In this document: positions 1,974 through 33,939 of the stretch, piece after piece
Position numbering within the stretch: the stretch's first letter is position 1
Layout of the letters: each line of letters starts with the position of its first letter
Origin: a virus
Taxonomy: Duplodnaviria > Caudoviricetes
DNA length: 37,018 bases
Strand: one strand, 5' to 3'
Virus record (IMG/VR): IMGVR_UViG_3300005713_000010
Span: 1 to 37,018 of that record
The notes under the pieces: generated by a model
The model's database searches: none
What the model was told of the DNA's origin: nothing
The model's input: only the letters and a program-made list of their open reading frames with translations
Translations under genes and position numbers: made by a program

Positions 1974-2312
1974 ATGGCGTTAGCGCATGAAGAATTCAGA
2001 AACCACATCGGGCGAGGCCTGAGTGAGGCGAATCAGTTAATCAATTACACCGGTTCTGGCACGTATCAGGCCGCAAACACCACGATTCAGCAATGGAAGG
2101 ACAGCAACCGCGCTCAATTCGCATTGCCGAGCATCCATGAGACCGACAAGGCGCTTGCGGAGATCGCGAACCGGCACGTCGACAACCTCAACGCGATGGG
2201 GATCTACGGGCCGACGGAGGTGGCCGCGTCGAACACGACCGCCACATGGGAAGCGCAGTTTACGGCTCAAGATCCGACCTTCCCAGCCACCTATAATGGC
2301 AGCCGAGGGTAG
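1974..2312 (+). CDS. Hypothetical protein (112 aa)
   Basis: RBS aagggggaaatATG; abuts the next gene. Confidence 0.7.
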   Translation: MALAHEEFRNHIGRGLSEANQLINYTGSGTYQAANTTIQQWKDSNRAQFALPSIHETDKALAEIANRHVDNLNAMGIYGPTEVAASNTTATWEAQFTAQDPTFPATYNGSRG

Positions 2313-2738
2313 ATGCCTCTAGTTCTGTTGATTGCCCTGCTATTGGCTGGCATGGCTGCTTTCTGCTTCTGCTGTTGGCTACTGATCAAAGATAGGAAGT
2401 ATTGGCGAGATCAGTACCAGCAGCGGGACCAGGAAGCGAGAGCGAGAGAGCAACATCTATTTGACCAGCTTTTACGCCTGAAAGGCTTCAGAGCCACGAT
2501 TGAGCCGAACATGCCTCAGTCTGCCATAGCTCACGCGCCCGCGCTCGACGCTGAAGACCTGGCCATCATTGACGATCGGATCAACGAAAGGGTAGAGGCG
2601 GGGGTTTTAACTGCCTCTGAGGGGCATTTGTGGGCCAACCAGCTACGCCAGGGAAGCCTTACGCCGTCGCAGATCGAGCGCATGCTATTCAGCAGGCAAA
2701 GAAACGAATTCCCTGGCAGTGTCGCCGACATTGATTAG
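2313..2738 (+). CDS. Membrane-anchored hypothetical protein with coiled-coil segment
   Basis: N-terminal hydrophobic helix (LVLLIALLLAGMAAFCFCCWLLI) then Q/R/E-rich helix; stop overlaps the portal start. Confidence 0.65.
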   Translation: MPLVLLIALLLAGMAAFCFCCWLLIKDRKYWRDQYQQRDQEARAREQHLFDQLLRLKGFRATIEPNMPQSAIAHAPALDAEDLAIIDDRINERVEAGVLTASEGHLWANQLRQGSLTPSQIERMLFSRQRNEFPGSVADID

Positions 2739-5137
2739 TGGACAATACGCCGAACCTCGCACCGCTGCCGGAACTAGAACAACAGAAGCAGCAACCGCGC
2801 TATCTCAAGAAGGACCCGGTTGACTTCTTCAACGCGCAGCGGCAGGAGATGCGCCGCGAGGGCGAGACCGAGGAATGGATCAAGCGCATCATGGCCTCGC
2901 AGAAGAACGAATTCTACTATCGAGGCTATCAGCGACTCAGAAAAGCCGATCTCAGCAATACATGGCGGGTGGACGATCCGAAACCCGTTCACTTCATCCT
3001 CAACGAGTTTCAATTTTGGACCAACGTGAATGTCGCGAAGTGGATCGCGAGCCGCGTTGATTACCGCTTTTCAGGCCTCGGCGATACGCCAGATCAGGAG
3101 ATGGCGGCGGCCAAGCTAAGGAATATCGCAGCCAGCTACGACGCCAGGTACTGGAACCGGAGCCAGGTGATTAACGCCAGCAAAGCCGCGCAATTCACGG
3201 GCTCGTTGGTCGCATATGTCTTTTACGATCCGGAGGCGGAGGCAGGGAAGGCATACCGCCCCGTCACTGATCGCCGACCGGTAAAACTCGGTAACGACGC
3301 CTACCGCTGCGCGGATTGCGGGGGCGTCGGCGAACTCGAACCGGGGGCGGAGCCGGTCTGCGCTAATTGCCAGTCTCCCAACCTCGATGTGATCGCCGTT
3401 CCAGAGGTCGAAATGGAGGTCCAGACCGGGCAGGAGGAATACGAGACCGGGGATGTTTGCTGCGAGCTGATCAGCCTCTACAACATCAGGTGGAATGCGA
3501 AACTAGGGCTTGAAAACTCGCCAGTAGTGCTATGGGAAGAGGAGCATGACAAAGACGACCTGGAGGCCACCTATGAAGGTCTGGAAATACCGCAATCAAA
3601 GAATGACGACGTAGGATTGAGGGCGAAAGCGCAGCTCGAACACATCAACGAGCGGGATAGTACGCATGCTCGGCGCGTCACGCTCTCCCGGATGTGGATC
3701 GAGCCGAGGCGATACCAGCGAATCGAACTGGAAAAGCCAATAAAAACGTATGCGGGGGTTGAATTCCCGGCCGGCGTGAAGCTGATCGAGATTTTTCCCG
3801 ATGGAATCCACGTTATCATGATGGGAAATCTGATCGTGGACCTGTACGCCGCGGTCAAAAATGACGATCTGGTGTGGATGGGGTACCACACTAACGCCTC
3901 CGGCGGCTTACCACAGGGCGTCGACGCGATGTGCGAGCCTCAGCGGATGTCAAATACGGGACACAGCCTCTGGAATTTGTGGATGCGACACCACGCGTCG
4001 CCTCCGAAACGCTACAACCCCGAGTTAATTGACGCCGGGGACATGTCGGGCGATCCGCTGCGGCCGATTCCGATCAATTCTGCGAATCTGGGGCTCCGCG
4101 AAGGCGCCACAATGGAGAATGCGATCGTCGCCGACCTGCCTACGCCGTTCCCGCAAGGGATCTGGCAAGGGCTGGAGGCGATGAGAAACCTCATCCAGTT
4201 CGCGGCGAACGCCACGGAGTTCACCGAAGGCCTTCCGAACGTCAATAACGAGACTTTGGGCGGGGCCAGGATAGCTCAATCCCTGGCGCAGTCCATTTCC
4301 AGCACGGTTTTAGCTCAATTCGCCGATTTTCGCGTCGGCGTGATCAAGCGGACGCTCAAGAAGTTTCGGCAATACTGCTGGGATCAGCGGTATATCGAGT
4401 ATGCCGGGACTTACGGGCAGATTGAGGGCGAATATCTCTCATCAGTAGACATTCCGAACGAATTCGAGGTGGAAACGGTCCAGAATTCGTGGTTGCCGCG
4501 CACGGCGGAGCAGCGCCAGACCAATCTACAGGGCTTTCTAGCGGCGGTCGGCGGCCCACTCGGCATGATGCAGATGCCGCCAAAGCTACTCAGCGAATTT
4601 AGCGACATATATGACATTAAGTTTGGAGATGACATCTTCCCGATCGCGGTGAGGACCGCCAGATGGCGGATTAAGCAGATGGGCGCGCTCGTGCCACAGA
4701 TGCAGGCCTTACAACAGGTCACGGCGCCGCTCGGGATAGTCGAGGCCGAGCCGCAGATGGATCAGGCGACCGGAGAAATGGGGCTCGCGCCTGTTTCCGT
4801 CGGTCAGCAACTATTCAGCGCCTTACAACCACCATTCAACCCGCGAGAACGGGGACATATGGAGGTCGCGGAATATCTCTCAACCTGGCTAACCACAGAC
4901 GAGGGGCTGAACGCGCCTCCTGAACTGATAGAGGCGGTCGGAGTGTATCAGGACGCCTCTTTGCAGGCTCAGGCAATGCAACAAATGGCGTTGGGGGCGG
5001 TCTCGATGGCGGGTCAGCCGGCGCCGGTGGAAGGGGGCGGCGGTCCTTCTGGGTCTTCTGGGCCTCCTCAGAAGGCCAAACCATCGGGCCAGGGACCACA
5101 GGCGCAGGGCGGGGCATTGTCCGCCGGCGCAGGCTAA
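2738..5137 (+). CDS. Portal protein (podovirus/P22-like) with CxxC...CxxC insertion
   Basis: 799 aa between terminase and scaffold/capsid; NEFYYRGYQ near N-terminus, helical body, Q/M/P/G-rich tail; CADC...CANC at 3308-3370. Confidence 0.82.
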   Translation: MDNTPNLAPLPELEQQKQQPRYLKKDPVDFFNAQRQEMRREGETEEWIKRIMASQKNEFYYRGYQRLRKADLSNTWRVDDPKPVHFILNEFQFWTNVNVAKWIASRVDYRFSGLGDTPDQEMAAAKLRNIAASYDARYWNRSQVINASKAAQFTGSLVAYVFYDPEAEAGKAYRPVTDRRPVKLGNDAYRCADCGGVGELEPGAEPVCANCQSPNLDVIAVPEVEMEVQTGQEEYETGDVCCELISLYNIRWNAKLGLENSPVVLWEEEHDKDDLEATYEGLEIPQSKNDDVGLRAKAQLEHINERDSTHARRVTLSRMWIEPRRYQRIELEKPIKTYAGVEFPAGVKLIEIFPDGIHVIMMGNLIVDLYAAVKNDDLVWMGYHTNASGGLPQGVDAMCEPQRMSNTGHSLWNLWMRHHASPPKRYNPELIDAGDMSGDPLRPIPINSANLGLREGATMENAIVADLPTPFPQGIWQGLEAMRNLIQFAANATEFTEGLPNVNNETLGGARIAQSLAQSISSTVLAQFADFRVGVIKRTLKKFRQYCWDQRYIEYAGTYGQIEGEYLSSVDIPNEFEVETVQNSWLPRTAEQRQTNLQGFLAAVGGPLGMMQMPPKLLSEFSDIYDIKFGDDIFPIAVRTARWRIKQMGALVPQMQALQQVTAPLGIVEAEPQMDQATGEMGLAPVSVGQQLFSALQPPFNPRERGHMEVAEYLSTWLTTDEGLNAPPELIEAVGVYQDASLQAQAMQQMALGAVSMAGQPAPVEGGGGPSGSSGPPQKAKPSGQGPQAQGGALSAGAG

Positions 5138-21096: not shown

Positions 21097-23235
21097 ATGT
21101 CAAACATCACGATCGGCGCGGCCTCTATATCAGGCTTCAACTCGAAGGACGTAGGCGCGGATGTGGCCTTGACCGGGTTAGTGGTGACGGTCGGCTCCGC
21201 GACCGTCACGGGGACATTTCGATCGCAGTGGATCGGGATGGGCGGATTCAAGATCCGATTCTCAACCGGAGTAACCTATACCGTGGCGAGCGTCGAGAGC
21301 GCGACCAGCTTGACCCTGACCACGACTTACGCCGAATCGAGCGGCACGGTCACCGGGACCTGGCGCAAATACGCCGTCCTGCGCGTCTACGTCCTGACGC
21401 CGTTTACGCCGTCAGGCGAAACCTACGTAGCTCAGTCGGGAGCGCCGGGCTCGCCTACCTGGTTTCGCCGCTATGCGGTCCCGGTGATCAGCGACGGGAC
21501 ACAACTCGTGGCTTACACGCCGGAGATCGTTTTACCGGCGACGACCAATTCAAATGTCCCGACCGCCCGCTATGCGGCGTCCATCTACGGTCAGTCCGGG
21601 GCCTTCCTTCAGTCATATCCCGGATGCGTGGACCAGTTTCAGTTAAATCATTTGACGACGCCGACCAGTTGGGCCACAGTCTGCGATTTCAATCGGCCTG
21701 CGCCCGCGGACCCGCCGCTCCAGGCGGTAAACTATTACACTCAGGCCCAGATAGACGCCCGTTTCCCGTCGGGATTGGCTGGACAACTAATCTATTTCCA
21801 GAGTACCGGCAACGTTCTAAGACCTCTCACTCCGAATCCAGCGCAATTCAGCATTTCCAGCGATATTCTGTCCATTTCATCTTCATCGAGCATAGTTAAC
21901 GGCCCAGCCACCGCGACAGACAACGCGATAGCGCGCTTCGACCTGACGACCGGGAAGTTGATTCAAAATAGCGCCGTGACCGTCGCCGATACGTCGGGAA
22001 GTTTCGCCGTGCCCGACGGATGGAGCGTCACGAATGTGGGCGGTACTTCTGTAACTCAAAACTCCACAGCGGTCGTGCTGTCAATGCCATCAACCTCGGC
22101 GAGCAGGGACGCGCTTGACATCAACGCCGTATCTCAAAATCAGGGAGTGGGGGGTCTTGGGCGCACTGTGACACTTCGAGCCACTTATAACCAGACCAGT
22201 ACCGCGAACAGTTCTGACCTGGACCTTGTTAGGACTGAAACGGCCGTAGGTTCGGGTCAACATAATTTCCTACGAGCGTTCAGAAATGGCGCGCTTCGAT
22301 TTCGAGTAGACAATCTAGGTAATCTGTATCCCGGCGTCGCCGGATGGTTTATCGGGGACGAGAACGGAAATGAAATCTTAAAATTCGTGGCCGGCTCCGT
22401 CTCCGCCGTTAATGAAATCACTCTGACCAACGCTGCTACGGGCGTTTTCCCGTCAATTTCGGCCTCCGGGGGTGATTCAAACATTGACATCACGCTTACG
22501 CCGAAAGGCACAGGTAAGATTCAGATAGGCGCGCCTGGCGGGACCCCTGCGGCAGGCGCGATAAGTGGGCCGGCCGCGACGGGGACGAATATCGCTGGCG
22601 CGGCGCTCGACCTCGCCGGTGGTTCAGGCACAGGCAACGCGGCGGCCGGACAACTCGCCGCGCGCTACCCGCTCACAGGCGCGAGCGGGTCAGCGGTTCA
22701 GTCGTTGAGCGCGAACCGGTATCCGATAGCCGCGAACATGTGGACGAACACATCGGGGACGGTTGTCGAAAACACGACGACCGAAACCACGGTGTTCGGT
22801 AACGCCTCCACCGGATCAACCCAGACGATCGAAGGAGGTATGGCGCGGGTCGGGCAGATTTACCGGGTCGAGATACGCGGAGTCTACACCACTACCGCCT
22901 CTCCGACGATGCGGATTCGGATCAAGATCGGCGGCTCCAATGTGGTGGACTTTGGCGCCGTCACGCTGGCGCCAGCGTCCGGCAGATTCGAGATCGTCGC
23001 AGATATTCACATTCAGGTGGTCGGCGCGACCGGGACCGCTTTCATTCAATACTGTTACTGGAATTTTACGAATGGGCTGTCAGGCACAGGCGCCCCCACG
23101 CATGTTTTCAGCGCCAACACCGCCACGGTAGATTTTACGACCTCGAAGCAAATTGATATAACCGCGCAGTGGAGCGCGGCGAGCGCAAGCAACACTTTTA
23201 CCTCATCCACTCAGCAAATTAATATCGTCAGGTAA
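21097..23235 (+). CDS. Tail fibre/receptor-binding protein (712 aa)
   Basis: S/T/G/A-rich; GPATATDNAIARFD..TGKLIQNS and NIDITLTPKGTG fibre motifs; C-terminal beta-sandwich. Confidence 0.72.
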   Translation: MSNITIGAASISGFNSKDVGADVALTGLVVTVGSATVTGTFRSQWIGMGGFKIRFSTGVTYTVASVESATSLTLTTTYAESSGTVTGTWRKYAVLRVYVLTPFTPSGETYVAQSGAPGSPTWFRRYAVPVISDGTQLVAYTPEIVLPATTNSNVPTARYAASIYGQSGAFLQSYPGCVDQFQLNHLTTPTSWATVCDFNRPAPADPPLQAVNYYTQAQIDARFPSGLAGQLIYFQSTGNVLRPLTPNPAQFSISSDILSISSSSSIVNGPATATDNAIARFDLTTGKLIQNSAVTVADTSGSFAVPDGWSVTNVGGTSVTQNSTAVVLSMPSTSASRDALDINAVSQNQGVGGLGRTVTLRATYNQTSTANSSDLDLVRTETAVGSGQHNFLRAFRNGALRFRVDNLGNLYPGVAGWFIGDENGNEILKFVAGSVSAVNEITLTNAATGVFPSISASGGDSNIDITLTPKGTGKIQIGAPGGTPAAGAISGPAATGTNIAGAALDLAGGSGTGNAAAGQLAARYPLTGASGSAVQSLSANRYPIAANMWTNTSGTVVENTTTETTVFGNASTGSTQTIEGGMARVGQIYRVEIRGVYTTTASPTMRIRIKIGGSNVVDFGAVTLAPASGRFEIVADIHIQVVGATGTAFIQYCYWNFTNGLSGTGAPTHVFSANTATVDFTTSKQIDITAQWSAASASNTFTSSTQQINIVR

Positions 23236-23239
23236 GACC

Positions 23240-24184
23240 ATGCCGATTTTCCCATACGACGAAGAGGAACGCCGCCGCCGGTCGCTTACTCCGGGGATCA
23301 ACCCCAACGCGCCGTCGCCGCCGAGACTGCCGGAAATCTCAATGCCGCGGCGCGTGTCGCCGCCTCCTATGACCAATATACCCGGCGATGTCGAAATGCC
23401 AGGCTCCACGAATCCGGCCCCGTCTATGGGAGAAGCCAGAGACGTGTATTTGAAGGGAACGCCGGGCAGGGGGAAGTCAGCATTGCTTGGCGCGCTGAGA
23501 GGCTTTGCGGGAGGGGGAGGCCTGGGCGGAGCGATAACGGGCGGGATCTACGGGGCCGCCGATCCGCGCGGACTGCGAGAGATGGAATTTAACCAGCGGG
23601 TCATGCCGAGGATCAGGGAAGAGGAGGCGTACCAGGGGCAACAACGCGCGCTCGGATTGCAAGAACAGGAACATAGAATGGCGATAGATCTAAATCGCGC
23701 GCGGATTGGCCAGATTGGCGCCGAGAACGTCGCGAGAGCTTCAGAGCTTGATTTGAGGCGTGAGAACGCCGCCAGGGAAGCGAGCCTTACTCGGAGCCAA
23801 ATTGACCTCAACGCCGCCAGGGCGGAGGCGGAGCGCGCCGGCCGTCCGGTTTATCAAGACCTTGTAGATACAGACGGTAAGATCCGGAAGTATCAGGTTT
23901 TTCCCGGCGGGAGAAAAGTCGCTGTGGGCGAATCGGGCGCCGCCGCGATCAGCCAAAAAGGCATCCAATCCCGCGAGAGGATAGCCGGGCAACGTGAAGC
24001 CGGGGTTAGCGCGCGCGCGGCCGAACGGCAAGGCGCCGCGCGGGCGAAACCGGGATCAAAAGGGGCGGCCTCGAAAGAAGATATTGATGAAGCCTTCCGC
24101 CGCGCCGGCGGACACAAAGCCGGCTGGACGCTCAAAGGGATGAAAAAACATTTCAAGGATCAAGGCTACACTGTCCCGGAATAA
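23240..24184 (+). CDS. Internal virion (ejection) protein
   Basis: Pro-rich start, Gly-rich hydrophobic ALLGALRGFAGGGGLGGAITGG, long R/E/A coiled coil. Confidence 0.55.
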   Translation: MPIFPYDEEERRRRSLTPGINPNAPSPPRLPEISMPRRVSPPPMTNIPGDVEMPGSTNPAPSMGEARDVYLKGTPGRGKSALLGALRGFAGGGGLGGAITGGIYGAADPRGLREMEFNQRVMPRIREEEAYQGQQRALGLQEQEHRMAIDLNRARIGQIGAENVARASELDLRRENAAREASLTRSQIDLNAARAEAERAGRPVYQDLVDTDGKIRKYQVFPGGRKVAVGESGAAAISQKGIQSRERIAGQREAGVSARAAERQGAARAKPGSKGAASKEDIDEAFRRAGGHKAGWTLKGMKKHFKDQGYTVPE

Positions 24185-24456
24185 TAGCCTTTGTCGCGCA
24201 GCCGCTTTCTATAGCAATAGCTTGATACCCAGGGCGGCGCAAGGACCAGCGTCGGCAGAGTAAAATACGCCCACTCGCGAGCGCTGGTATGATCACTCAG
24301 CCACGCGGCGCCGATCGCTATCGCGAAGATCATCGGGGCGATGATTGCGGCGCGTCTGCTTTTATAAAATCTCGTCGCATACAAAAATCCAATAGAGACG
24401 CCGACAGTCAAGAGCGCAATCGCTGATGTCACCACAGCCAATTCAAGCAGAAACAT
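24166..24456 (-). CDS. Antisense three-TM membrane protein (96 aa), possible superinfection-exclusion moron
   Basis: ATG at 24456 with GGAGG RBS; three hydrophobic segments; AT-richer; fills the gap between two ejection genes. Confidence 0.7.
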   Translation of the reverse strand: MFLLELAVVTSAIALLTVGVSIGFLYATRFYKSRRAAIIAPMIFAIAIGAAWLSDHTSAREWAYFTLPTLVLAPPWVSSYCYRKRLRDKGYYSGTV

Positions 24457-24478
24457 ATTTGACCTCCAATAAGGCCGG

Positions 24479-24508
24479 ATTCTAGGGCATACCATGCCAC
24501 AAGATCAA
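24479..24508 (-). promoter_or_regulatory. Putative sigma70-type promoter for the antisense membrane gene
   Basis: Minus strand TTGATC-N18-TAGAAT, overlapping the start of the giant gene. Confidence 0.45.
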
Positions 24509-27500
24509 TTTGACGTTGATAAATTTATGCGGGAGCGCCGCAAGCCTGTCGCTGAAAAGCAGCCCGCGGCCACTGAGGGGAGTTTCGATGTTGACACTTT
24601 CATGCAGGAGCGCCGCCAGCCGACACGCCCGAAGCCGCGCGCCTACATTCCACCGACCGAGCGCCAGGAGTTCGGCCGCCGGCCGCCGGCGCTCGATCAA
24701 GGAGTCTCGCGCTTTACCTTCAACCGTCCGAGTCCTGCGCCGCAGGTCTTGACGCCGGATCAGCCGGGCGCAGACTTCGCGGCGGCCGACATCGAACAGC
24801 GAAGGCGTGGGGAGGCTGAGCGCAGATACCGCGCGCAGGAGAAAAAGCCGCTGCTCACCCAATTAGGTGAGCAGGCCAGAACATATATCGCCGAAGGCGG
24901 CGGGACGCTCTCGAAGATGGCTCGCCAGACGGCCGAAGCGGGGGCGGGAGTCGCGCGGGGACTTCAAACCGGCAATTTCAGGCCTGTCCCGATTGAATCC
25001 TGGCGGCGGTTCGAGGCCGAACGCAACCCGGAACTTGAAGCCGAAGTGGCGCGCTATCGGCCGACCGCTCAACAGCAAATCGCTAGAGGAATTATCTCAA
25101 GCGCCCCGGTCGCAGGCGCCGCGGGATTGCTTACCGCGGCCACTGGCGGCAGCTTGCCCGCGGCGATGGCGGTAGGCGGCGGCCTCGGCGCGGCAGGGGC
25201 CGATTGGCAAGATCCGAGAAGGGCATTAACTCAGACGGCGATCGGGGCCGTCGCGCCGGTCCTCGGCGGCATGGCGGGGCAGAGAATCGGCGGGGCTGTC
25301 GCCAATAGATTAACTCAACCTTTGGCGCAAGCCGCGGCGAGGGCGGGCGGGGAAGTCTTGGGAGGCGGGGCAGGCAATGTGCTTGCTACAGGCGCTGAGC
25401 AATTGGCGTTCGATAGGCGATTGAATGTGCCTGAGTTGATCAAATCCGGTATTGTCGGCGGCGCATTGTCGGCGCCCGGAGCGGTCGGAGCGGCGAGCCG
25501 TAGGGCCGAAGGCGCGCGCGCGATGGCGCCACTAGTTGAAGGAGAAGTTGTACCCGAAGTCTTACCGCCTACTGAGCCTTTGGCCCGAACTCCCAGAGGC
25601 GCGATCATTGCGCAGCCTTCGACTTTATACGGCCGCAAATTATTGCCGCCTGCTTCGACTCAGCCCCTCCAGTATCCCGAAGTGCCTGTGACCCAGGAAA
25701 TGCCGGCGATCAGGCGGCGAATCACGGCTGAGAACGCGCCGACGGCGGAAATCCCCAGTACGTCTACGGAGCCAGAACAGATCCGCCCGACGGCGCGGTT
25801 TCCACGTGCGCCAATCGCGCCAGAACAGGTCCGCCAGACGGCGGAGCTTCCACGGGTAGCGCGGGGACCGGTCGCCCCTGAAACACCGCCAGAGCCCAGC
25901 CTTCAGCCAACCAGGCCCATTCCAAGACTACCTCAAGCTACCGACGAGAACATTCAGGCGCTGCGGGACAGGCGCGAAGAACTGGGCCGCATTGCTTACG
26001 ACCGCCGCGGCGACTTCACAGGTGATCTGCGCGACGAATTCGACAGGCTTAACAGCATTATCAGGGAATACGACCTCAAGCGCGCGCCGCGTGAGATAGG
26101 GGAACCACCAGGCCAACGTCCCGAAAAACCGATGACGCCGGAAGAGAGATCGCGGAGACGCGCGGCGCTCCAGCAGCGAACGGGACCGATGCCAGAAACC
26201 CTGACTGAAGGCCGGAAAATCACACAGGAATTTCAAGTGCCGGGGGGATTGAAACCGTCTGAGAGTTTCGCCTCGCGCGAAGACGCCCGCCAGGGTCATT
26301 TTGAGCAGTTCGACGATGCGGAACTGATACAGGAAATCGGCAGGCTGACAGAGGAGCGCAATAAAGGGCTCCGCGGGCAATCGAAACTGTCGCGCGCCGA
26401 ACTCGAAGCGAATAACTTCGATTTGAAAATCGCCGTAGAGATGCAGAAAGAACGCGGGTACATTCAACGGCAGATGGGCAGGGAAGCCGGGGAGAGGATC
26501 GCGACTCGCGCGCCAGGCCTTCCGCCTAAGAAGGTTCAGCCGCCACGGGCGGAAGCGGCGCCGCCAGTCGCCAAGTTCAAGGCCGAAGACATCCCGCAGG
26601 CTGGCGAGCATGGCGCCCTTGATAAGACCTCGCTTGATATTGAAACCCGATTCCGCCATTACCTGGCCGACAACTTTGACGAGGCGGTCACTCGCTACCG
26701 GGAGAAGTTCGGTAAGGAGATCAATACCGACAACGCGCGCGAGTTATCCGAAGATTACGCCAGGTCGGATGAGGCGCGCTCGCTTTATTCATCCGCGGTC
26801 CATGAGCCGTCGAGCTGGTTCGCGAAAGAGTTATATAAACTCGCGCTGAAAGAGAAGCCGAAGCCGGGCGAGGAGCCGATGGTACTGTTCACGGCCGGCG
26901 GGACAGGCGCCGGCAAGACTTCGACATTGGCGTCGTCGACGAAGATGGATACTGCGGTTCGGCGCAGCCAGATCATCATGGACGGCAATCTGAACAACCC
27001 CAAGAATGCTATCCAGAAGATAAATCAGGCGCTCGCGGCCGGCAAAAAGGTCACGGTCGCCGCCGTTTACCGTGACCCGATCGAAGCCTGGGTTAATGGC
27101 GTTTTGCCGCGGGCGGAAAAGCGAGGGAGGGCAGTCCCGGTCAATGTTCATATCGCGACGCATTCGGAAATGCGCCAATCGCTTATTGAACTAGCGGCGC
27201 ACTACGCCAATGACCCGCGAGTCGAGATCGGATTTATGGATAATACCCACGGAATGAACAATGCGCGGGACGCGAACATTGATATTTTCCGTGAAATAAG
27301 CGATACTAAGGCGCTGCGAGAGCGGCTAGTTAAAGAAACGAAGGAAGCTTATGCCAAAGGACGAATCAGTCAACGAGTCCTCGCCGGTTCTCTCGGAGGA
27401 GGAGAAGTATCGCCGGGCGCTGAAGAAGTCGGAGGAAGGCCGGCCGTTAGCGCGAGAGTTGGCCAGACAGCTAAATTACAACCTGTCCCACAAGGTAGAC

Positions 27501-30500
27501 CCAGACCGCCGGATACAGCCAGAGCCGCCGAAGACCTCAGAAGAGGCGTTCCTGAGCCGGTTGCGCCAGGCCGACGAGCTGGAGGGGACGAATCCACCCT
27601 CACCATACCCAGGGGAGAAGACCGCCCCGTCAGGTACGAAGTCAGGGAGTTAGCCGACCTCCAGCCTTCGCACGACCCGTTTACTTTTCAGAAGAATCCG
27701 AAATATCCCTACGTCAACGACCGTGACTACACGAGTCCTGCGAATCGCACGGATGTCGAGGAGAACACGAAGGCCGGCAAGTTCAAACCGCCTTTGGTTA
27801 TCAATGATGACCCGACCGCGGCCGGCGGGCCTCCCATCATCCGCGATCATGGCGCCGTTTTGGGCGGCAACAGCCGGACGATGATGATCGCCAGGATCTA
27901 CAAGAATCATCCCCAGGACGCGCAAAAGTACAAAGACTTATTGACGAAGAAAGCCGCCGGGTTCGGCATTGCCCCCGGCGAGTTGGCCAACTTCAAAGAG
28001 CCAGTGTTAGTGAGGGTAGACCAGGGCGCGGGCGACACGCAGAAGTTAATCACAGGCCTGAATATCATGCCCGGCAAGGCGATGACCTCGACCGAAGCCG
28101 CCAGCGCGCGGGCGAAATCAATGTCCGTCGAGACGCTTGACTTCCTCGCCTCCCGGCTGGCCGCGGAAGGACCGGAAGGCACGCTTGCGAACGCCCTTGA
28201 AGGGGCGAAGGGCGTCAGGGTGATAAACCGATTGATTGAGGATGGCGTTATCCCAGCGGGTGAACGCAATCGCTATCTGTCCGACCAGGGCAATCTGTCG
28301 CCGGCCGCAAAGACTGAGATCGAACAAATGCTGCTCGGCCGCGTCTTTCGCGACCAGGCCCAGATGAAAGCCACCCCGCCCGAGATGCGCAACAAACTCG
28401 TGCGCGTGGCGCCGCAGCTCGGAAAGATGGCCGGGACCGAGTGGGACATCACGGGCCTGCTACCGAACGCCATCGAGGCGGCGAGAGTCGCGAAGGAACA
28501 AAAGCTCGACCTCGAAATGCTCAATCGTCGCGGCAACCTCTTTGGCGAAGGCGTCCGGTATTCGCCCGAGGAATTGGCCATCGCCGGCCACTTGAAAGAT
28601 AAAGGTCCGGCTCAGATTGAGAAGGTATTTAAACGCTACGCGGCGGAGTTTGAAAGCGCCAGAGCAGGCCGCGGATTATTCGGCGAGCCGCCGTCACAAA
28701 AAGAGGCGTTTAAAGATGTCTTTCAGCCCGAAAATGGCGGGCACATTATGGGCGGCATCTTTGGCGGCCTGCAACCGCTATTTAAGGGAGCAAGACTGCC
28801 CGGCCGCGCGGAAGTATCTGAAACTGTTGGAGGCCTCCAGACTGCGGCGCAACTCGGCAACCCTCGATTTGTCATTCGCAACATCTTGCAGAATTTCACT
28901 TACGGCAAGCAAGAACGCGCGGCCACGCGGTTAGCGGCGTCGCTCGATTGGGCGTTTAGCAAATTCACAGGCAAGCCGCGCCAGATCACGCAGCCTGGGG
29001 GAAGCGATCTCGCGGCTTACGTCCGCAACTGGCGCAGGGCAGTCAGAGCCTACAAGGCCGGCCAACCGTTACCGGGCGGAGCGACCCCCTTGCAGCACAC
29101 TGCCAGCGCAAACAAGATAGATAAAGCCGTCACTAAGCTAATGACCTGGATTAACGAGATTCCGGACAGCGCGAACTGGCAGACGAGGTTTGATGATTCG
29201 CTTATATCAATCGTGGAGGCGTCAACAAAGTCAAAATCGAAATTGAATGTAACTGACGCCATAGATCAGGCGACGGCGGAAGCGAACCGGGCGGCGCTGA
29301 GAGATCCCAACTTCGCGTCCCGCGCGCTGCTCCTGATCAAGCAGGGGCTTAATAAGGCCAGCTCGCCAATTTTCGGAACCGACCAGTTTGGCGCCGGTGA
29401 TTTTCTCGTGAAGTACGCGCAGACGCCTGGCGCGTTGCTCAAGCGAGGGCTCGAACGCTCGCCCCTGGGGCTGTTTCAAGTCGCCAAAGAAGCCGCCACG
29501 CCAGGTCCATACCGCCGGCGTAATACGCTGCTTGCGCTCTCGCGAGTAGCTGAGGGAGCGGTTACAGGAGTCGGCCTCGGCGCCGCTCTCGGCGCCGCCG
29601 GCGTGCTGATCGGTCCGGAAGAAGAGAGCAAGACAACCAGGACTATGGAGCGTGAAGAGGGCGTCAAGGGTTATTCTCTCAACGCCTCCGCCCTTGGCCG
29701 CCTGATGACGGGCGAATCAACCGAAATGCGGACGGGCGACAATCTTTACTCGATAGACTGGCTCCAGCCGTGGGCGATGAATCTATCGGCCGGCGCGGCG
29801 CTCTCCAGTTTGTACAAGCAAGGCAAACTCGGCGTCGGGCGCTCAGCCGAGGCCGCCGGCCAGGCCGTCTATGACAGCCTGTCGAAGACGCTCGACATCA
29901 TGGGTGATCAGTCGGTTCTCAAGAATATGTCACGCTATTTGGACAAGGCGCAGGGCGAGACCTTCTCGGAAAAGTTTTTGAACTTCGCTAAAGCGGTTGG
30001 CCTCGATGTCCCGTCCAGTTTCGTGCCGTCCAGTCTGCGCGCCGCCAGGCAAGTAATGGACCCGTTCGAGCGCGACGTGCGGCCGGAAGACAGGCGAGGC
30101 GTCGGGGGCTTTGCGAAAGAAGCCGCAGGGCGAGCCCTGGCGCAAATACCGGGCATCTCTGAACGGTTCGCGACGCGGCCGAGTCTGCTGACCGGTGAGG
30201 CCAGAAAGACGGCGCTCGGGGAAATGAGCGTGCCGGCGCGGGTCGCCGCGCAGTTCTCGCCGGCGAATGAGTCAACCTATACGCCGCGACCGGTGGCCAG
30301 GGAGATCAGCCGCCTGAACCGCGCCGGCGAGAAAGTCTCTGTCGAATTCCCGCGGCCGAAAAAAGGCGAGATGACATCGGACCTTCGCGTCCGTGAGCGG
30401 CGATTCGCTCAATACTTCTCGCGGATGTCCGCTGAGTTGATTCAAGACGATTTCTACAAGGAGGCCGACAACGAAACGAAGGCCGCCGCGTTCGCTGGAC

Positions 30501-30619
30501 TCAAGCGCCATTTATCGAACCTGGGGAAAGAAGACTTCGAGGAAAAGATGATCGAAGAGATTGTGGAATCGGCGATGGAGACCGTTGAAAAGCGGAGAGA
30601 GAAGGAACAGGAGAAATAA
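24494..30619 (+). CDS. Giant polyvalent internal virion protein with zeta-toxin-like P-loop kinase and ParB-like (ddrB-ParB type) domains
   Basis: G/A-rich hydrophobic N-terminal segments; Walker A GGTGAGKT at 26897-26920 with IIMDGNL and RAEKRGRAVP; VRYEVRELADLQPSH...GPPII...VLGGNSR from about 27625; helical C-terminal third with hydrophobic G/A segments. Confidence 0.8.
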   Translation: MPQDQFDVDKFMRERRKPVAEKQPAATEGSFDVDTFMQERRQPTRPKPRAYIPPTERQEFGRRPPALDQGVSRFTFNRPSPAPQVLTPDQPGADFAAADIEQRRRGEAERRYRAQEKKPLLTQLGEQARTYIAEGGGTLSKMARQTAEAGAGVARGLQTGNFRPVPIESWRRFEAERNPELEAEVARYRPTAQQQIARGIISSAPVAGAAGLLTAATGGSLPAAMAVGGGLGAAGADWQDPRRALTQTAIGAVAPVLGGMAGQRIGGAVANRLTQPLAQAAARAGGEVLGGGAGNVLATGAEQLAFDRRLNVPELIKSGIVGGALSAPGAVGAASRRAEGARAMAPLVEGEVVPEVLPPTEPLARTPRGAIIAQPSTLYGRKLLPPASTQPLQYPEVPVTQEMPAIRRRITAENAPTAEIPSTSTEPEQIRPTARFPRAPIAPEQVRQTAELPRVARGPVAPETPPEPSLQPTRPIPRLPQATDENIQALRDRREELGRIAYDRRGDFTGDLRDEFDRLNSIIREYDLKRAPREIGEPPGQRPEKPMTPEERSRRRAALQQRTGPMPETLTEGRKITQEFQVPGGLKPSESFASREDARQGHFEQFDDAELIQEIGRLTEERNKGLRGQSKLSRAELEANNFDLKIAVEMQKERGYIQRQMGREAGERIATRAPGLPPKKVQPPRAEAAPPVAKFKAEDIPQAGEHGALDKTSLDIETRFRHYLADNFDEAVTRYREKFGKEINTDNARELSEDYARSDEARSLYSSAVHEPSSWFAKELYKLALKEKPKPGEEPMVLFTAGGTGAGKTSTLASSTKMDTAVRRSQIIMDGNLNNPKNAIQKINQALAAGKKVTVAAVYRDPIEAWVNGVLPRAEKRGRAVPVNVHIATHSEMRQSLIELAAHYANDPRVEIGFMDNTHGMNNARDANIDIFREISDTKALRERLVKETKEAYAKGRISQRVLAGSLGGGEVSPGAEEVGGRPAVSARVGQTAKLQPVPQGRPRPPDTARAAEDLRRGVPEPVAPGRRAGGDESTLTIPRGEDRPVRYEVRELADLQPSHDPFTFQKNPKYPYVNDRDYTSPANRTDVEENTKAGKFKPPLVINDDPTAAGGPPIIRDHGAVLGGNSRTMMIARIYKNHPQDAQKYKDLLTKKAAGFGIAPGELANFKEPVLVRVDQGAGDTQKLITGLNIMPGKAMTSTEAASARAKSMSVETLDFLASRLAAEGPEGTLANALEGAKGVRVINRLIEDGVIPAGERNRYLSDQGNLSPAAKTEIEQMLLGRVFRDQAQMKATPPEMRNKLVRVAPQLGKMAGTEWDITGLLPNAIEAARVAKEQKLDLEMLNRRGNLFGEGVRYSPEELAIAGHLKDKGPAQIEKVFKRYAAEFESARAGRGLFGEPPSQKEAFKDVFQPENGGHIMGGIFGGLQPLFKGARLPGRAEVSETVGGLQTAAQLGNPRFVIRNILQNFTYGKQERAATRLAASLDWAFSKFTGKPRQITQPGGSDLAAYVRNWRRAVRAYKAGQPLPGGATPLQHTASANKIDKAVTKLMTWINEIPDSANWQTRFDDSLISIVEASTKSKSKLNVTDAIDQATAEANRAALRDPNFASRALLLIKQGLNKASSPIFGTDQFGAGDFLVKYAQTPGALLKRGLERSPLGLFQVAKEAATPGPYRRRNTLLALSRVAEGAVTGVGLGAALGAAGVLIGPEEESKTTRTMEREEGVKGYSLNASALGRLMTGESTEMRTGDNLYSIDWLQPWAMNLSAGAALSSLYKQGKLGVGRSAEAAGQAVYDSLSKTLDIMGDQSVLKNMSRYLDKAQGETFSEKFLNFAKAVGLDVPSSFVPSSLRAARQVMDPFERDVRPEDRRGVGGFAKEAAGRALAQIPGISERFATRPSLLTGEARKTALGEMSVPARVAAQFSPANESTYTPRPVAREISRLNRAGEKVSVEFPRPKKGEMTSDLRVRERRFAQYFSRMSAELIQDDFYKEADNETKAAAFAGLKRHLSNLGKEDFEEKMIEEIVESAMETVEKRREKEQEK
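27279..27307 (+). promoter_or_regulatory. Putative internal sigma70-type promoter inside the giant gene
   Basis: TTGATA-N17-GATACT in a locally AT-rich patch, 43 bp before the nested ATG at 27351. Confidence 0.55.
27351..27653 (+). CDS. Nested +1-frame gene (100 aa), candidate antitoxin/immunity protein for the kinase domain
   Basis: AAGGA RBS 5 nt before ATG; hand-counted GC3 63/80 in this frame versus 33/80 in the host frame; charged helical product. Confidence 0.68.
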   Translation: MPKDESVNESSPVLSEEEKYRRALKKSEEGRPLARELARQLNYNLSHKVDPDRRIQPEPPKTSEEAFLSRLRQADELEGTNPPSPYPGEKTAPSGTKSGS

Positions 30620-30624
30620 CGAAG

Positions 30625-30657
30625 CGCGCCCACTTCTTGAAGCCGGAAGTGGGCGCG
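30625..30657. terminator. Stem-loop between convergent genes, likely terminator
   Basis: CGCGCCCACTTC-N9-GAAGTGGGCGCG perfect 12-bp stem; no long U tract. Confidence 0.65.
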
Positions 30658-30663
30658 AAAGAC

Positions 30664-30987
30664 TCAAACCTCATAACAAGAATGGCTCAATAATTGATAT
30701 TCGGTATAAAGCATAATGCCGTTACACCAGTGTTCGATGACTAAATAGTGATCCTGGCAACACAGGTTTCTGGCGTAATCACAATACGTCTCATAAACAT
30801 CATAATATTGCTCGTAGCACTGCGGAGTAGCGCTTGGGGTCGGATCGCCGCCGCCGCCCGGCCAATAGCATTTGAAGTCGGCCGGATCGGCTAGATCGAA
30901 CTGCGCCGAAGAATGGTTAACGGCGACGAGCGACAGCGTAATGAGCGTAAAAACGACAAGAATCTTTCCAGTAATATGCTTGTTCAT
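30664..30987 (-). CDS. Small secreted Cys/Tyr-rich protein (107 aa)
   Basis: Signal peptide ending SSA-Q; 7 Cys and 11 Tyr in the mature part; AGGAGG RBS; ATGA overlap. Confidence 0.75.
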   Translation of the reverse strand: MNKHITGKILVVFTLITLSLVAVNHSSAQFDLADPADFKCYWPGGGGDPTPSATPQCYEQYYDVYETYCDYARNLCCQDHYLVIEHWCNGIMLYTEYQLLSHSCYEV

Positions 30988-31787
30988 TTCGCCTCCTGTT
31001 TGAACGCTTGAAGGTTCATCTTCTGACGGGCGAAGGCCGCCTTGAAACTACCGACGCCGCCGGCCTTGTTCTGTGGCGATTTATTCAACACCATCGCGCG
31101 GATCTGCATGCCCCGGATCGTGTTCATATATCCCGCCGTCTGATTCCTATTAAAATTCGCCGGGACAGTCATTTTGAGTGAATCTAATTGTTGGGCGAAT
31201 TGTTCGGAAGACAACTGACTCTCACTGTCCAGCTTATTTATCATCTCAGTCATATTCGCCATCGCCGCCCTAACGCCGATTAATTGATCGCGCTGCGATT
31301 CCAATTTGATCTTGTCTCCTTCGCCCGTTCCGTCGGCGAATAGCGCCATCGAAATATTGGCCGGGTACGTCCGCGAACGCTCCTCGTATGTGAATTTTTT
31401 CAACGAGATCGAGACATGCGTCATTCGCAAGGCCGCGAGCGGTTGGCCGCTCGACAGGTCGGCGATGAATTTATCGCCCCTCTGAAAATCGATCTGATAG
31501 GCGATTATCGGCTTGACGCCGACGTTCCGGATTTCAATCCCCAAATATTCATTCTCGATTTTCTTCGATACGACCTCAATTGATGTGGTTTCATTGCGTA
31601 TTTCAATTCTTTCCACCGTCATCGCCTCGGCCTGATTCGCTGGCGAGCGCTTTAGATAATAATGGCGGCCGAAACCGACGCCGATGAAAACGATAGCCGC
31701 GGCAAGCAGGCCGGCGATCGCCTTGTGTAATAAATCGAAATTCGCGAACGCGGCGGCGGCGGATTTGATTTTATCGAAAGCCTTCAT
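30984..31787 (-). CDS. Membrane-anchored extracytoplasmic protein (267 aa)
   Basis: ATG at 31787 with GAGGAG RBS and ATGA overlap; one TM, then IRNVGVKPIIAY...ALFADGTGEGD beta domain and helical tail. Confidence 0.75.
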   Translation of the reverse strand: MKAFDKIKSAAAAFANFDLLHKAIAGLLAAAIVFIGVGFGRHYYLKRSPANQAEAMTVERIEIRNETTSIEVVSKKIENEYLGIEIRNVGVKPIIAYQIDFQRGDKFIADLSSGQPLAALRMTHVSISLKKFTYEERSRTYPANISMALFADGTGEGDKIKLESQRDQLIGVRAAMANMTEMINKLDSESQLSSEQFAQQLDSLKMTVPANFNRNQTAGYMNTIRGMQIRAMVLNKSPQNKAGGVGSFKAAFARQKMNLQAFKQEAK

Positions 31788-32173
31788 GTCCGCTCTCCTC
31801 TGGCGCCGCGCTCGATATAATTCTGGCCCGCCAACAGGACCGCCAACATCACCCCCAGGGCGAGGAGGACGCCCCACCAGAAAGTGTTAAACAGGATGGC
31901 GGTCAGGATTCCCAATAAACAAAAGCCGCAGAAAACGCGCCTCCGCCTCCGCCCATCAATTTTGAAAAACATAGTGTAGAAAACAATAAAAGCGCCGACC
32001 CATGCCACAGATAACGCCCACCGGATAAATTTCCATTCGCCGGTCTCTTCAAATATATCTCTCGACAAATTCTCCACGTAATGAAAGCTCAAAATAATGG
32101 CCATTCCGGTAAGGAGAAACAAAATTGTGGCGGGATACGCCTTTGGCTTACGATTTACAATTGGCTCCGGCAT
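31784..32173 (-). CDS. Four-TM membrane protein (129 aa), candidate immunity protein
   Basis: GAGGAGG RBS; four hydrophobic segments with an RRRRR loop. Confidence 0.75.
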   Translation of the reverse strand: MPEPIVNRKPKAYPATILFLLTGMAIILSFHYVENLSRDIFEETGEWKFIRWALSVAWVGAFIVFYTMFFKIDGRRRRRVFCGFCLLGILTAILFNTFWWGVLLALGVMLAVLLAGQNYIERGARGERT

Positions 32174-32243
32174 TGATTTATGTCCCTCCTCGATTTTGTT
32201 TTGAAAAATAGCGGATCGCTCCCACTCCTGGCGCCATCACGAG

Positions 32244-33824
32244 CTAGGGGATAATGCCTGCACAAACTTTCTTTGCCCTGACACTCCCTGAATACATCTT
32301 TGAGCAATTCTGAGAGACGTTATCCGAACATTTTCCGGGGATTGTACAAATACATTCCTTCAGTTCGGCATAAAGGGCGATGATAGTGGCAAAGGTCGCG
32401 ATCCAGGCGAACATCTGACAGGCGGCCAAGACTGCAAGACCCACCCCTGTCGCAGAGAGAATCCCATCACATGCTAACGCAATACCTGCCCCCCCGAAGA
32501 CGGCGGCGACCCCATAACCAATGTATTTCAATCTGCAAATCTTCAGTAATCCCGCTCCGCAAACAAAACAATCCGGGTGTGTCGGCGGAACTTGTGCGAC
32601 CTGGCTACATACTGCTCCTGATGTGGTGAAACCAGAAAATAATTTCAAGTCGGGTATCTCACTCGGCAAAATCTGACTGCCTCCCGGATCATCGAACCAT
32701 GCGCGCGACGAGGCGTCCAGGATCAGATCCAGATTCGGTTCGACGCCGCCCATATGAATTTGAATATCAGAAAAGTAATTTCCTGTTCCCGGATCTAAGG
32801 TGATGGGTGTATATGAATAGACGACATCCGGCGGAATTGGAACGTTCAAATCCCAGACTACAAATTGTTTAGTGACCGAGACATCATCAATCGTCATTTT
32901 ATAATGCCATAGCCCCTTCCAATCCTGACTCCACCAGTATCCGTTATTCCAGTTAAAGGCGCCGGCGGCGTCCGTATACCCCACGTCAAACTTGTCCCAA
33001 AAAACGCCGTTACGCCAACGCTCCACTTTGACCAATTTATTCGGCGGCGCGCCCGTGATTTGATTCACGGAGACGCCGTTAACCGGTACGACGAGAGGCG
33101 ATATGGTGTAGGTGAATAGGGGCTGAGCCAGAGCTTGAAAACCTACATTCGCAATAAAGTGATTTCCCGTTTCCTGATCATAAATATGGGCGCGCTTTAT
33201 GTAGCGAGCCGCATATTCGGGGAGGAATGGCCCCACGGTTTTTGTGAAATTCCCGTTGGCGTCTGTATATTCGCCATAGGCTTGATCATCTTCAATCAAT
33301 AATCCGTTAGTCCACTGTGACCATTTGATTAGCATATTCGGGGCCGCTCCGCTGATCGCGTAAGTGAGGTATTCACCGGGCGCGATAATTGGTTTATCCA
33401 CGGTGAGCTGTTCGGGGACGGCGCTTACTCGATATTCCATAAAGTCAAAAATCCCTGAGCCGCACCAGGATTGTTCCTGTAGCGCCACTTCCCATGTCCC
33501 CACCTCCGACGGCATAAGCGGACCGACCAATTTAACCCATTCGCCATTAGCGTCTGTAGTAATAGTTTCGGTTGGGCACATGCCGGGTGTCGGAATTCCG
33601 TTCTTAGCATATTTCAGCCAATAGGTCTTATTCGGCGGGAGGTCCGCTCCGCGAAAAAAGATATAACTGCCCACCTCAGTCACGCTTGGAGAAGCCCAGA
33701 AATGATGTGGCTCATATACGCTTTGCGCCTCGACTTTAGCCGAAGGGATTACGGAAACGGCCCAGATCATTATGAAGGAGATCGCGTGGGCGCAATACTG
33801 TCTGACAGAACGACGGGTTTTCAT
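32244..33824 (-). CDS. Secreted protein with three Ig-like repeats and a Cys-rich hydrophobic C-terminal domain
   Basis: ATG 33824 with AGGAG RBS; signal peptide to VEA-Q; three PN...NG...TDA(N/A)G repeats; 11 Cys around a hydrophobic hairpin. Confidence 0.78.
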   Translation of the reverse strand: MKTRRSVRQYCAHAISFIMIWAVSVIPSAKVEAQSVYEPHHFWASPSVTEVGSYIFFRGADLPPNKTYWLKYAKNGIPTPGMCPTETITTDANGEWVKLVGPLMPSEVGTWEVALQEQSWCGSGIFDFMEYRVSAVPEQLTVDKPIIAPGEYLTYAISGAAPNMLIKWSQWTNGLLIEDDQAYGEYTDANGNFTKTVGPFLPEYAARYIKRAHIYDQETGNHFIANVGFQALAQPLFTYTISPLVVPVNGVSVNQITGAPPNKLVKVERWRNGVFWDKFDVGYTDAAGAFNWNNGYWWSQDWKGLWHYKMTIDDVSVTKQFVVWDLNVPIPPDVVYSYTPITLDPGTGNYFSDIQIHMGGVEPNLDLILDASSRAWFDDPGGSQILPSEIPDLKLFSGFTTSGAVCSQVAQVPPTHPDCFVCGAGLLKICRLKYIGYGVAAVFGGAGIALACDGILSATGVGLAVLAACQMFAWIATFATIIALYAELKECICTIPGKCSDNVSQNCSKMYSGSVRAKKVCAGIIP

Positions 33825-33939
33825 CGCTTTAGTACTCCTGATTATGTGGGGCATACCTAGTCTGGAGAATTATGTCGCTATTACGTAAAGACGTATTACG
33901 CCGCCGCAGACGCCAAATGAATTCAGATTTAATGATTAA

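Follow-up and report, generated by a model that had tools for sequence, protein, structure and literature searches.

The closest described relative of the system reported here is the pair ng_epsilon1/ng_zeta1 from Neisseria gonorrhoeae (PDB 6EPG, 6EPH and 6EPI). Its kinase ng_zeta1 transfers phosphate to the 4'-OH of UDP-sugars and causes lysis of E. coli; ng_epsilon1 lies as an extended non-globular chain over the ATP site of ng_zeta1 (Rocker et al., PMC5923241). We found a related arrangement in a stretch of 37,018 nucleotides from a virus of the class Caudoviricetes (IMG/VR record IMGVR_UViG_3300005713_000010, positions 1 to 37,018), called the window in the following. A small gene is nested here in the +1 frame of the gene for a giant polyvalent protein and begins within the last codons of a kinase domain of the ng_zeta1 type. 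We consider it likely that this is a conserved gene for a helical protein that binds the kinase as its antitoxin, with promoter and ribosome-binding site (RBS) located in the last kinase codons. The elements of the locus are the following.

24494..30619, plus strand: gene of the giant polyvalent protein (2041 aa), an open reading frame (ORF) that is the last in a terminase-led plus-strand block
26612..27397, plus strand: ng_zeta1-type P-loop sugar-nucleotide kinase domain (aa 707-968), from profile, AlphaFold2 (AF2) model and Foldseek
27279..27307, plus strand: predicted sigma-70-like promoter, TTGATA-17-GATACT, inside the kinase coding sequence
27341..27345, plus strand: Shine-Dalgarno-like AAGGA, 5 nt before the nested ATG (duplex energy -5.7 versus -2.3 after synonymous recoding of the locus)
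27351..27653, plus strand: nested +1-frame gene, 100 aa, ATG to TAG, likely antitoxin (host aa 953-1054, wholly within 24494-30619)
27611..28018, plus strand: ddrB-like ParB domain (aa 1040-1175; Pfam PF18763, E 6.1e-17), whose first 15 codons overlap the tail of the nested gene

A preliminary description of the window had placed the 100-codon ORF wholly inside the 2041-aa gene at these coordinates, with AAGGA 5 nt upstream of its ATG, and both were found as described. The window kinase shares with ng_zeta1 the rewired topology, the catalytic D/K/R/R residues and the terminal helix, and its partner is likewise predicted to be a small non-globular protein over the ATP site. The partner has, however, no sequence match to ng_epsilon1, its gene is located downstream and overlaps the toxin, and its promoter lies inside the toxin gene. 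In addition, the window kinase forms a single domain within a 2041-aa phage protein, has no oligonucleotide/oligosaccharide-binding (OB) fold behind it and differs from ng_zeta1 in two substrate contacts. The ng_epsilon1 gene is located upstream of its toxin.

The streptococcal epsilon/zeta and PezAT systems (PMC10532202) as well as AvrRxo1-ORF1/ORF2 also combine a kinase of the zeta superfamily with a small helical protein. The topology of these kinases is different, with a query TM-score (TMq) of only 0.42-0.47 for streptococcal zeta, PezT and AvrRxo1 in the Foldseek comparison. AvrRxo1 has a toxin-first gene order. The streptococcal epsilon is a three-helix bundle (PMC5923241), and in pneumococcal operons the antitoxin gene comes first, with an overlap of 1-3 nt (PMC10532202).

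In phages, large polyvalent proteins with a ddrB-like ParB domain, encoded beside late genes, have been described by Iyer et al. 2017 (PMC5512222), and a zeta-toxin-like kinase is named among their domains. The available main text of that study contains neither the word 'overlap' nor 'linker' and mentions no partner of the kinase. MuF polymorphic toxins (PMC5576092) are similar in that a virion-associated phage toxin is followed by a small putative immunity ORF, and such a small downstream ORF was reported for 89.4% of 191 toxin genes. The MuF toxin is C-terminal and the ORF follows its stop, whereas in the window the toxin is internal and the ORF fully nested; the words 'promoter' and 'zeta' are absent from the available text on MuF. 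Rz1 of lambda, located in Rz (PMC5295617, PMC6139136), is likewise embedded out of frame, and its product binds that of its host gene, but it forms a structural lysis pair and not a toxin with its antidote, and in the window the host frame is a shadow linker over most of the overlap. Our literature search, which covered the listed titles and abstract openings, mostly of papers available without subscription, gave no antitoxin nested in a phage polyvalent gene and no report of the partner family. Zeta kinases in polyvalent proteins, immunity ORFs behind MuF toxins and embedded genes such as Rz1 are already in print; the window locus adds a predicted target for the nested product, an internal promoter kept across relatives and the occurrence as a free pair of genes.

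The kinase had been described as zeta-toxin-like and set beside the zeta/PezT family. It does belong to the zeta superfamily (Pfam PF06414), but topology and profile place it in the ng_zeta1 subfamily and not with PezT. Searched against the PDB by profile, only ng_zeta1 matches (6EPH, E 8.5e-25, colinear), and the AF2 model (predicted local distance difference test, pLDDT, 96.6) has 6EPG as top Foldseek match with a TMq of 0.82. The catalytic Asp lies ahead of a late P-loop, which is the mark of the rewired topology. D56, K115, R175 and R181 of ng_zeta1 correspond to D746, K808, R873 and R879, and these are invariant in 78 aligned sequences; judged by sequence, the kinase is likely to be enzymatically active. 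Comparison of 149 homologues puts its end at about aa 968, with a conserved terminal helix.

A link between the two genes comes from the relatives of the kinase, which comprise 2398 protein clusters at 50% identity. We compared 80 viral loci (the best 80 of 178), 47 genome loci, one annotated phage and the window; four of these 129 loci (L120, L128, L130, L131) were dropped because the kinase end was unmatched, leaving 125 loci with 79 representatives below 70% identity. From 10 codons before to 20 codons after the kinase end, the +1 frame is free of stops in 124 of the 125 loci (78 of 79 representatives) and the +2 frame in 35 (22 representatives). Moved upstream within the kinase, the same +1 test gives a fraction of 0.15-0.57 of the loci. 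The +1 frame is open in all 60 loci with a fully nested ORF, in 63 of 64 in which the host frame stops first, and in the single one cut by the contig end. It starts with ATG in 64 of the 79 representatives and with ATG, GTG or TTG in 77, compared with 4 and 7 for the +2 frame. The kinases included go down to 28% identity to the window kinase, and two tightly linked protein genes, as in type II systems, are present in 124 of 125 loci.

A search for a small gene beside stand-alone kinases, proposed earlier, was successful: the same small gene follows solo kinases. In the ten loci inspected, such pairs are chromosomal genes of Acidobacteria, Binatia and one deltaproteobacterium or are located in phage NinB/terminase regions, and the neighbours of the chromosomal pairs are housekeeping, ordinary or insertion-element genes. 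Solo overlapping modules from Acidobacteria, Binatia and deltaproteobacterial genomes (L100, L104, L106, L109-L112, L115, L116, L121, L122, L124 and L086-L089) form a candidate chromosomal toxin-antitoxin family; the L112 kinase has an internal stop. Two proteins of about 670 aa with a different architecture, P0028 and P0029, carry closely related kinases (55% and 53%), followed by shadow-like linkers. In a tree made with a quick method, the nested or overlapping state changes 10 times, at least three of them forced by starred branches, compared with a mean of 24 after shuffling; the window is grouped with the solo loci L086-L088 on an unstarred branch (87), and we claim neither an order of events nor a donor from this tree. 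Among plasmids there was no match to the window kinase and four partial matches to the L086 kinase, none of which reaches the kinase end. Scans of viral contigs with the single sequences of the kinase and the nested protein and a scan with alignment A1 gave no matches, deeper alignments being needed, and scanning genome contigs with the partner alignment A3 gave none either.

The start signals of the nested gene are conserved as well. That ORF, start codon, RBS and promoter persist in homologues had been put forward as a test, and persistence is seen, with promoter and Shine-Dalgarno (SD) scores above those of synonymous recoding with each gene's own codon usage. Both hexamers are present in the window, but this match alone is within chance: positions 23000-32000 contain 6 promoter matches versus 3.4 +/- 2.1 in shuffled sequence, and against synonymous recoding p is 0.096. 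It gains weight only because its position is conserved in relatives. In the last 40-22 kinase codons of the 79 representatives, the best promoter score is 8.28 versus 6.19 after recoding (nominal p 1e-12; the representatives share kinship, which makes all p-values here optimistic). Relative to the kinase end, the -10 box is located at -93 nt in 39 of the 79 representatives and at -99 nt in 15, together 54, while the window has it at -96. Where the dipeptide YN falls on the promoter site, its Asn codon is AAT in 25 of 26 cases, compared with 301 of 737 elsewhere. The SD energy is -5.4 versus -2.5 recoded in 50 loci and -7.1 versus -2.9 recoded in 29 loci, class sizes in which L103 is counted as read-through and L032 as stopping, as these two also are in the promoter, tree and read-through GC3 (third-position G+C) figures.

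Co-folding of the nested product with the kinase, also suggested in the preliminary description, gave 0.84 compared with 0.00 for the best of three controls. Of the solved complexes, 116 of 157 reach the mark applied, and of the mismatched pairs 2 of 215, a calibration that holds only roughly with our own alignments as input. The runs agree in at least 73% of the contacts, and the partner has a pLDDT of at least 62. Modelled alone, the partner has helices at 16-46 and 63-78 (predicted TM-score, pTM, 0.34), corresponding to two segments.

27390..27503, plus strand: partner aa 14-51, long conserved helix predicted on the kinase (AF2 helix 16-46; confident interface)
27519..27584, plus strand: partner aa 57-78, a further short helix whose conservation is limited to the close subfamily (AF2 helix 63-78; invariant columns in alignments A2 and A3)

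The long segment contacts host aa 807-822, the P-loop helix at and after the Walker A lysine, and host aa 854-858, 897-905 and 911-930. As a prediction, the model supports binding of the partner to the kinase over the ATP site and P-loop helix. Coupling and co-folding point to association but not to its sign, and the partner might be real and bind the kinase as an activator, substrate adaptor, chaperone or packaging aid; the conserved second helix, absent from the confident interface residues, could recruit something else. However, the contact is predicted over the P-loop helix, as with ng_epsilon1, and a separate promoter within the toxin gene fits synthesis of the partner independently of the kinase. 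The chromosomal solo two-gene modules, which have no virion, also speak against a role in packaging. We regard a binding partner that does not inhibit as unlikely; the small protein is probably the antitoxin of the adjoining kinase domain.

The partner proteins are mostly 40-80 aa long and share a helix motif ending in LN. Starting from the nested protein, a single-sequence search gave 2 relatives among 4 candidates and a profile of six partner sequences gave 17 among 7995, of which 16 have an E-value below 1e-6. Using a profile from 77 other loci, built without L103 and without the window, the window ORF ranks first of 742 window stretches, and P0022 scores 4e-8. When P0014 is compared with the linker of P0027 in the +1 register, 68 of 102 positions fit (shuffle maximum 48), and the N-terminal residues of P0014 and P0022 are compatible with the kinase end motif. 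Alignment A6 was made without L103, L126 and L132, the kinase alignment A7 without these three and L112. A metagenome search (53 of 64 parts) revealed four loci, one of them the window's own. In the other three (L002:1313-1558, L003:1387-1623 and L004:433-1098) the partner is encoded as a free gene behind a strong RBS, two of them have TATAAT, and the frame equivalent to the host frame contains stops. Upstream of the free gene in L003, the letters resemble the kinase-helix codons that form the window RBS, a hint that orphans derive from the cassette.

For 84 partner sequences, no family in Pfam was matched by more than two and none in NCBIfam or PHROGs by more than one, and none of these is an antitoxin family; the partner profile has no match in the PDB under E 0.57. 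By sequence it belongs neither to the ng_epsilon1 nor to the streptococcal epsilon/PezA antitoxin families. We predict that it represents a new antitoxin family outside Pfam, NCBIfam and PHROGs. A ubiquitin-like reading of the partner was dropped, since the ESM Atlas hits (0.80-0.82, including UBact) are at chance level. The helix unit is present twice in L004, P0009, P0010, P0012 and P0013. In addition, one 416-nt contig of sequencing run X6 (depth 3), corresponding to window positions 27338-27586, has two tandem copies of the nested module: first a divergent one with 20 differences and then a near-identical one including RBS and start. The 17 differences listed for the divergent copy fall on nested codon positions as 9 third, 4 first and 4 second. 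A search of sequencing runs listed no RNA run with this sequence; four DNA runs, X6 among them, were analysed.

Codon composition and substitutions bear on which of the two frames is constrained. The nested ORF was said to fill the linker between kinase and ParB-like domain; it does span the linker, but its first 16 codons lie over the last kinase helix and its last 15 over the start of ddrB-ParB. The G+C content at third codon positions (GC3) reported for the first 80 codons, 63/80 in the nested and 33/80 in the host frame, is exact, but +1 GC3 is identical to host GC1, which is 0.64 gene-wide. The actual anomaly is the drop of host GC3 to 0.35 over 60 codons from aa 945, the minimum of a gene with a mean of 0.68. 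The use of GGA, AGA, CGA and GTT as host codons in the overlap was likewise borne out (21/80 there and 79/1961 elsewhere). Past the kinase, read-through loci in general show a fall of host GC3 from 0.70 to 0.42 and a rise of +1 GC3 from 0.63 to 0.79. By host codon position, 15 disjoint pairs from 61 read-through loci have 400/315/999 substitutions in the kinase body; past the kinase this third-position bias is lost, and the sum over the five closest pairs is 56/38/30, the pattern expected if the +1 frame is read. The free copies differ from the window at nested positions 1/2/3 by 15/9/24 (L002), 16/15/28 and 24/17/29 (remaining two of L002-L004). Substitutions in the closest pairs and the free copies favour the nested frame, but all 15 pairs taken together are nearly flat past the kinase (203/200/175). 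The nested ORF has the properties of an embedded gene, with full containment, its own start signals and selection on its frame.

The stop-broken frame of L003 still aligns with the giant-protein linker (40% over 102 residues), which identifies the linker as a shadow frame of the small gene. For most of the length, the small gene is the constrained frame and the linker the overprint, which adjusts the preliminary description of the small gene as overprinted. A second +1 ORF (28617-28934, 105 codons, TTG start), past the ParB region, has a promoter-like match at 28650-28679; host GC3 dips to 0.52 there, the translation is shadow-like and P0027 differs in that region.

Besides the nearly flat counts, several results weigh against our reading. 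One locus, L103, which belongs to the class in which the host stops first, is the only one without a long +1 ORF. Synonymous recoding leads us to expect an open +1 frame in 36.6 of 50 and 22.1 of 29 loci (observed: 49 and 29); thus the contrast with the +2 frame overstates the effect, and host residues explain part of the openness. It might be that the ORF is an untranslated by-product of the kinase residues and of a G/R/P-rich linker, which together leave the +1 frame open: it stays open on recoding in about three quarters of the loci, and the window promoter is not significant alone. The ORF persists, however, past the host stop (63/64), free homologues exist with stops in the host frame, and protein motif, codon choice, SD and substitution pattern favour the +1 frame. 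The free copies and the overlapping class largely refute the by-product explanation, which has become highly improbable, and the nested ORF is almost certainly a real gene.

Further points of this kind concern kinase and partner. On the broad 77-locus profile, the window ORF reaches only 12 bits (E about 0.01). Of the ng_zeta1 contacts to the lactoyl group of UDP-N-acetylmuramic acid (UNAM), K59 is conservatively replaced by R749 and N75 is changed to S766; the substrate may therefore differ from that of ng_zeta1. The co-fold result may partly reflect likeness, since a similar complex, that of ng_epsilon1 with ng_zeta1 (2018 release; kinase identity about 20%), had already been solved. Finally, on the sequences at hand the partner is also present apart from the kinase: in the stretches available for L002-L004, the nearest three copies with DNA context (contigs of 1.3-1.9 kb), there is no kinase (best E 0.1). 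These free copies, which bring an RBS and a TATAAT-like box of their own without a visible kinase, and the tandem repeats in several family members would fit a partner that is an independent small early or moron gene hitch-hiking behind the kinase without acting on it. Such a gene is difficult to reconcile with a linkage in 124 of 125 loci to kinases as distant as 28% identity, with signals embedded in kinase codons and with a co-fold pass alongside null controls. Orphan and repeated copies are also expected of immunity genes. A mere hitch-hiker is, in our judgement, quite improbable.

The giant protein carries a Pfam Zeta_toxin match at aa 823-905 and the ddrB-ParB domain at aa 1040-1175. With these conflict domains and its position at the end of a terminase-led block, adjoining late genes, it is a polyvalent protein. 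With its homologue P0027 it shares 71% identity over 792 aligned residues spanning kinase, linker and ParB. An SLT domain is found in P0027 (N-terminal), P0041 and P0112, and further domains of relatives are LPD38, ART-PolyVal and InPase. Gene position, these SLT domains and the precedent of P1 DdrB (PMC5512222) make it likely that the protein is a virion ejection protein. The giant protein is present in a collection of 15 billion sequences, in which the exact nested protein is absent. The preliminary description had the antitoxin protect the lysogen or producing cell; of lysogeny there is no sign, with no integrase among the 25 window ORFs scanned and no terminal repeat on the contig, which is probably incomplete. 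On the opposite strand, a small hydrophobic ORF (24169-24495, minus) immediately precedes the giant gene, which is followed by a block of ORFs (30664-33854, minus; 107, 297, 129 and 536 aa) that appear secreted or membrane-bound; those scanned gave no confident family.

The best reading of these data is a toxin-first type II module that is read through by a virion gene, the linker being the shadow of the small gene. The preliminary description had proposed a kinase-antitoxin pair captured in a virion protein; linkage, signals, selection and co-folding favour this proposal, whereas toxicity, neutralisation or rescue, expression and packaging are inferred. Sequence comparison shows a cassette of the kinase, its internal promoter-like site, the SD and the overlapping partner gene, which is the mobile unit in this reading and is present both free and read through. 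If the kinase is located at the protein end, the two genes simply overlap; if domains follow, as in the window, the host frame has no stop and continues across the partner gene as a floppy shadow linker. The kinase would phosphorylate UDP-sugar cell-wall precursors as ng_zeta1 does and thereby drain them, and the partner helix over the ATP site would silence it during synthesis of the giant protein in the infected cell. Transcribed separately, the antidote could be produced independently of the late giant transcript, and the giant protein would then be packaged and ejected into the next host.

It might also be possible, although we consider it doubtful, that the virion delivers the kinase as a poison and that the antidote is made only from the host-type promoter in the incoming phage gene. 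A cell transcribing the phage DNA would be rescued, whereas a cell destroying it by restriction or CRISPR would keep the poison and lose its cell-wall precursors. If this were true, out-of-frame nesting of an antidote would be a general way for polyvalent proteins to carry internal toxins, and the orphan and tandem copies of the partner would represent immunity that was stolen or amplified.

The toxin-first module presented here links a partner family, predicted to be antitoxins, to the 2398 protein clusters of this kinase clade, and this family may account for part of the 'orphan' zeta toxins that a review has pointed out (PMC10532202). Polyvalent proteins can have low-complexity linkers that are shadows of real genes, and annotation misses the hidden partner: the sole annotated phage record with this kinase (L132, MW202577.1) names the kinase-bearing protein (coding sequence 2093-4729) 'thymidylate kinase' and leaves the 40-codon +1 partner ORF after it unannotated. 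For the phage, the locus offers an answer to the question of how a giant protein with an internal cell-wall toxin may be made without early death of the producing cell: the antidote and its promoter would be contained in the toxin cassette itself.

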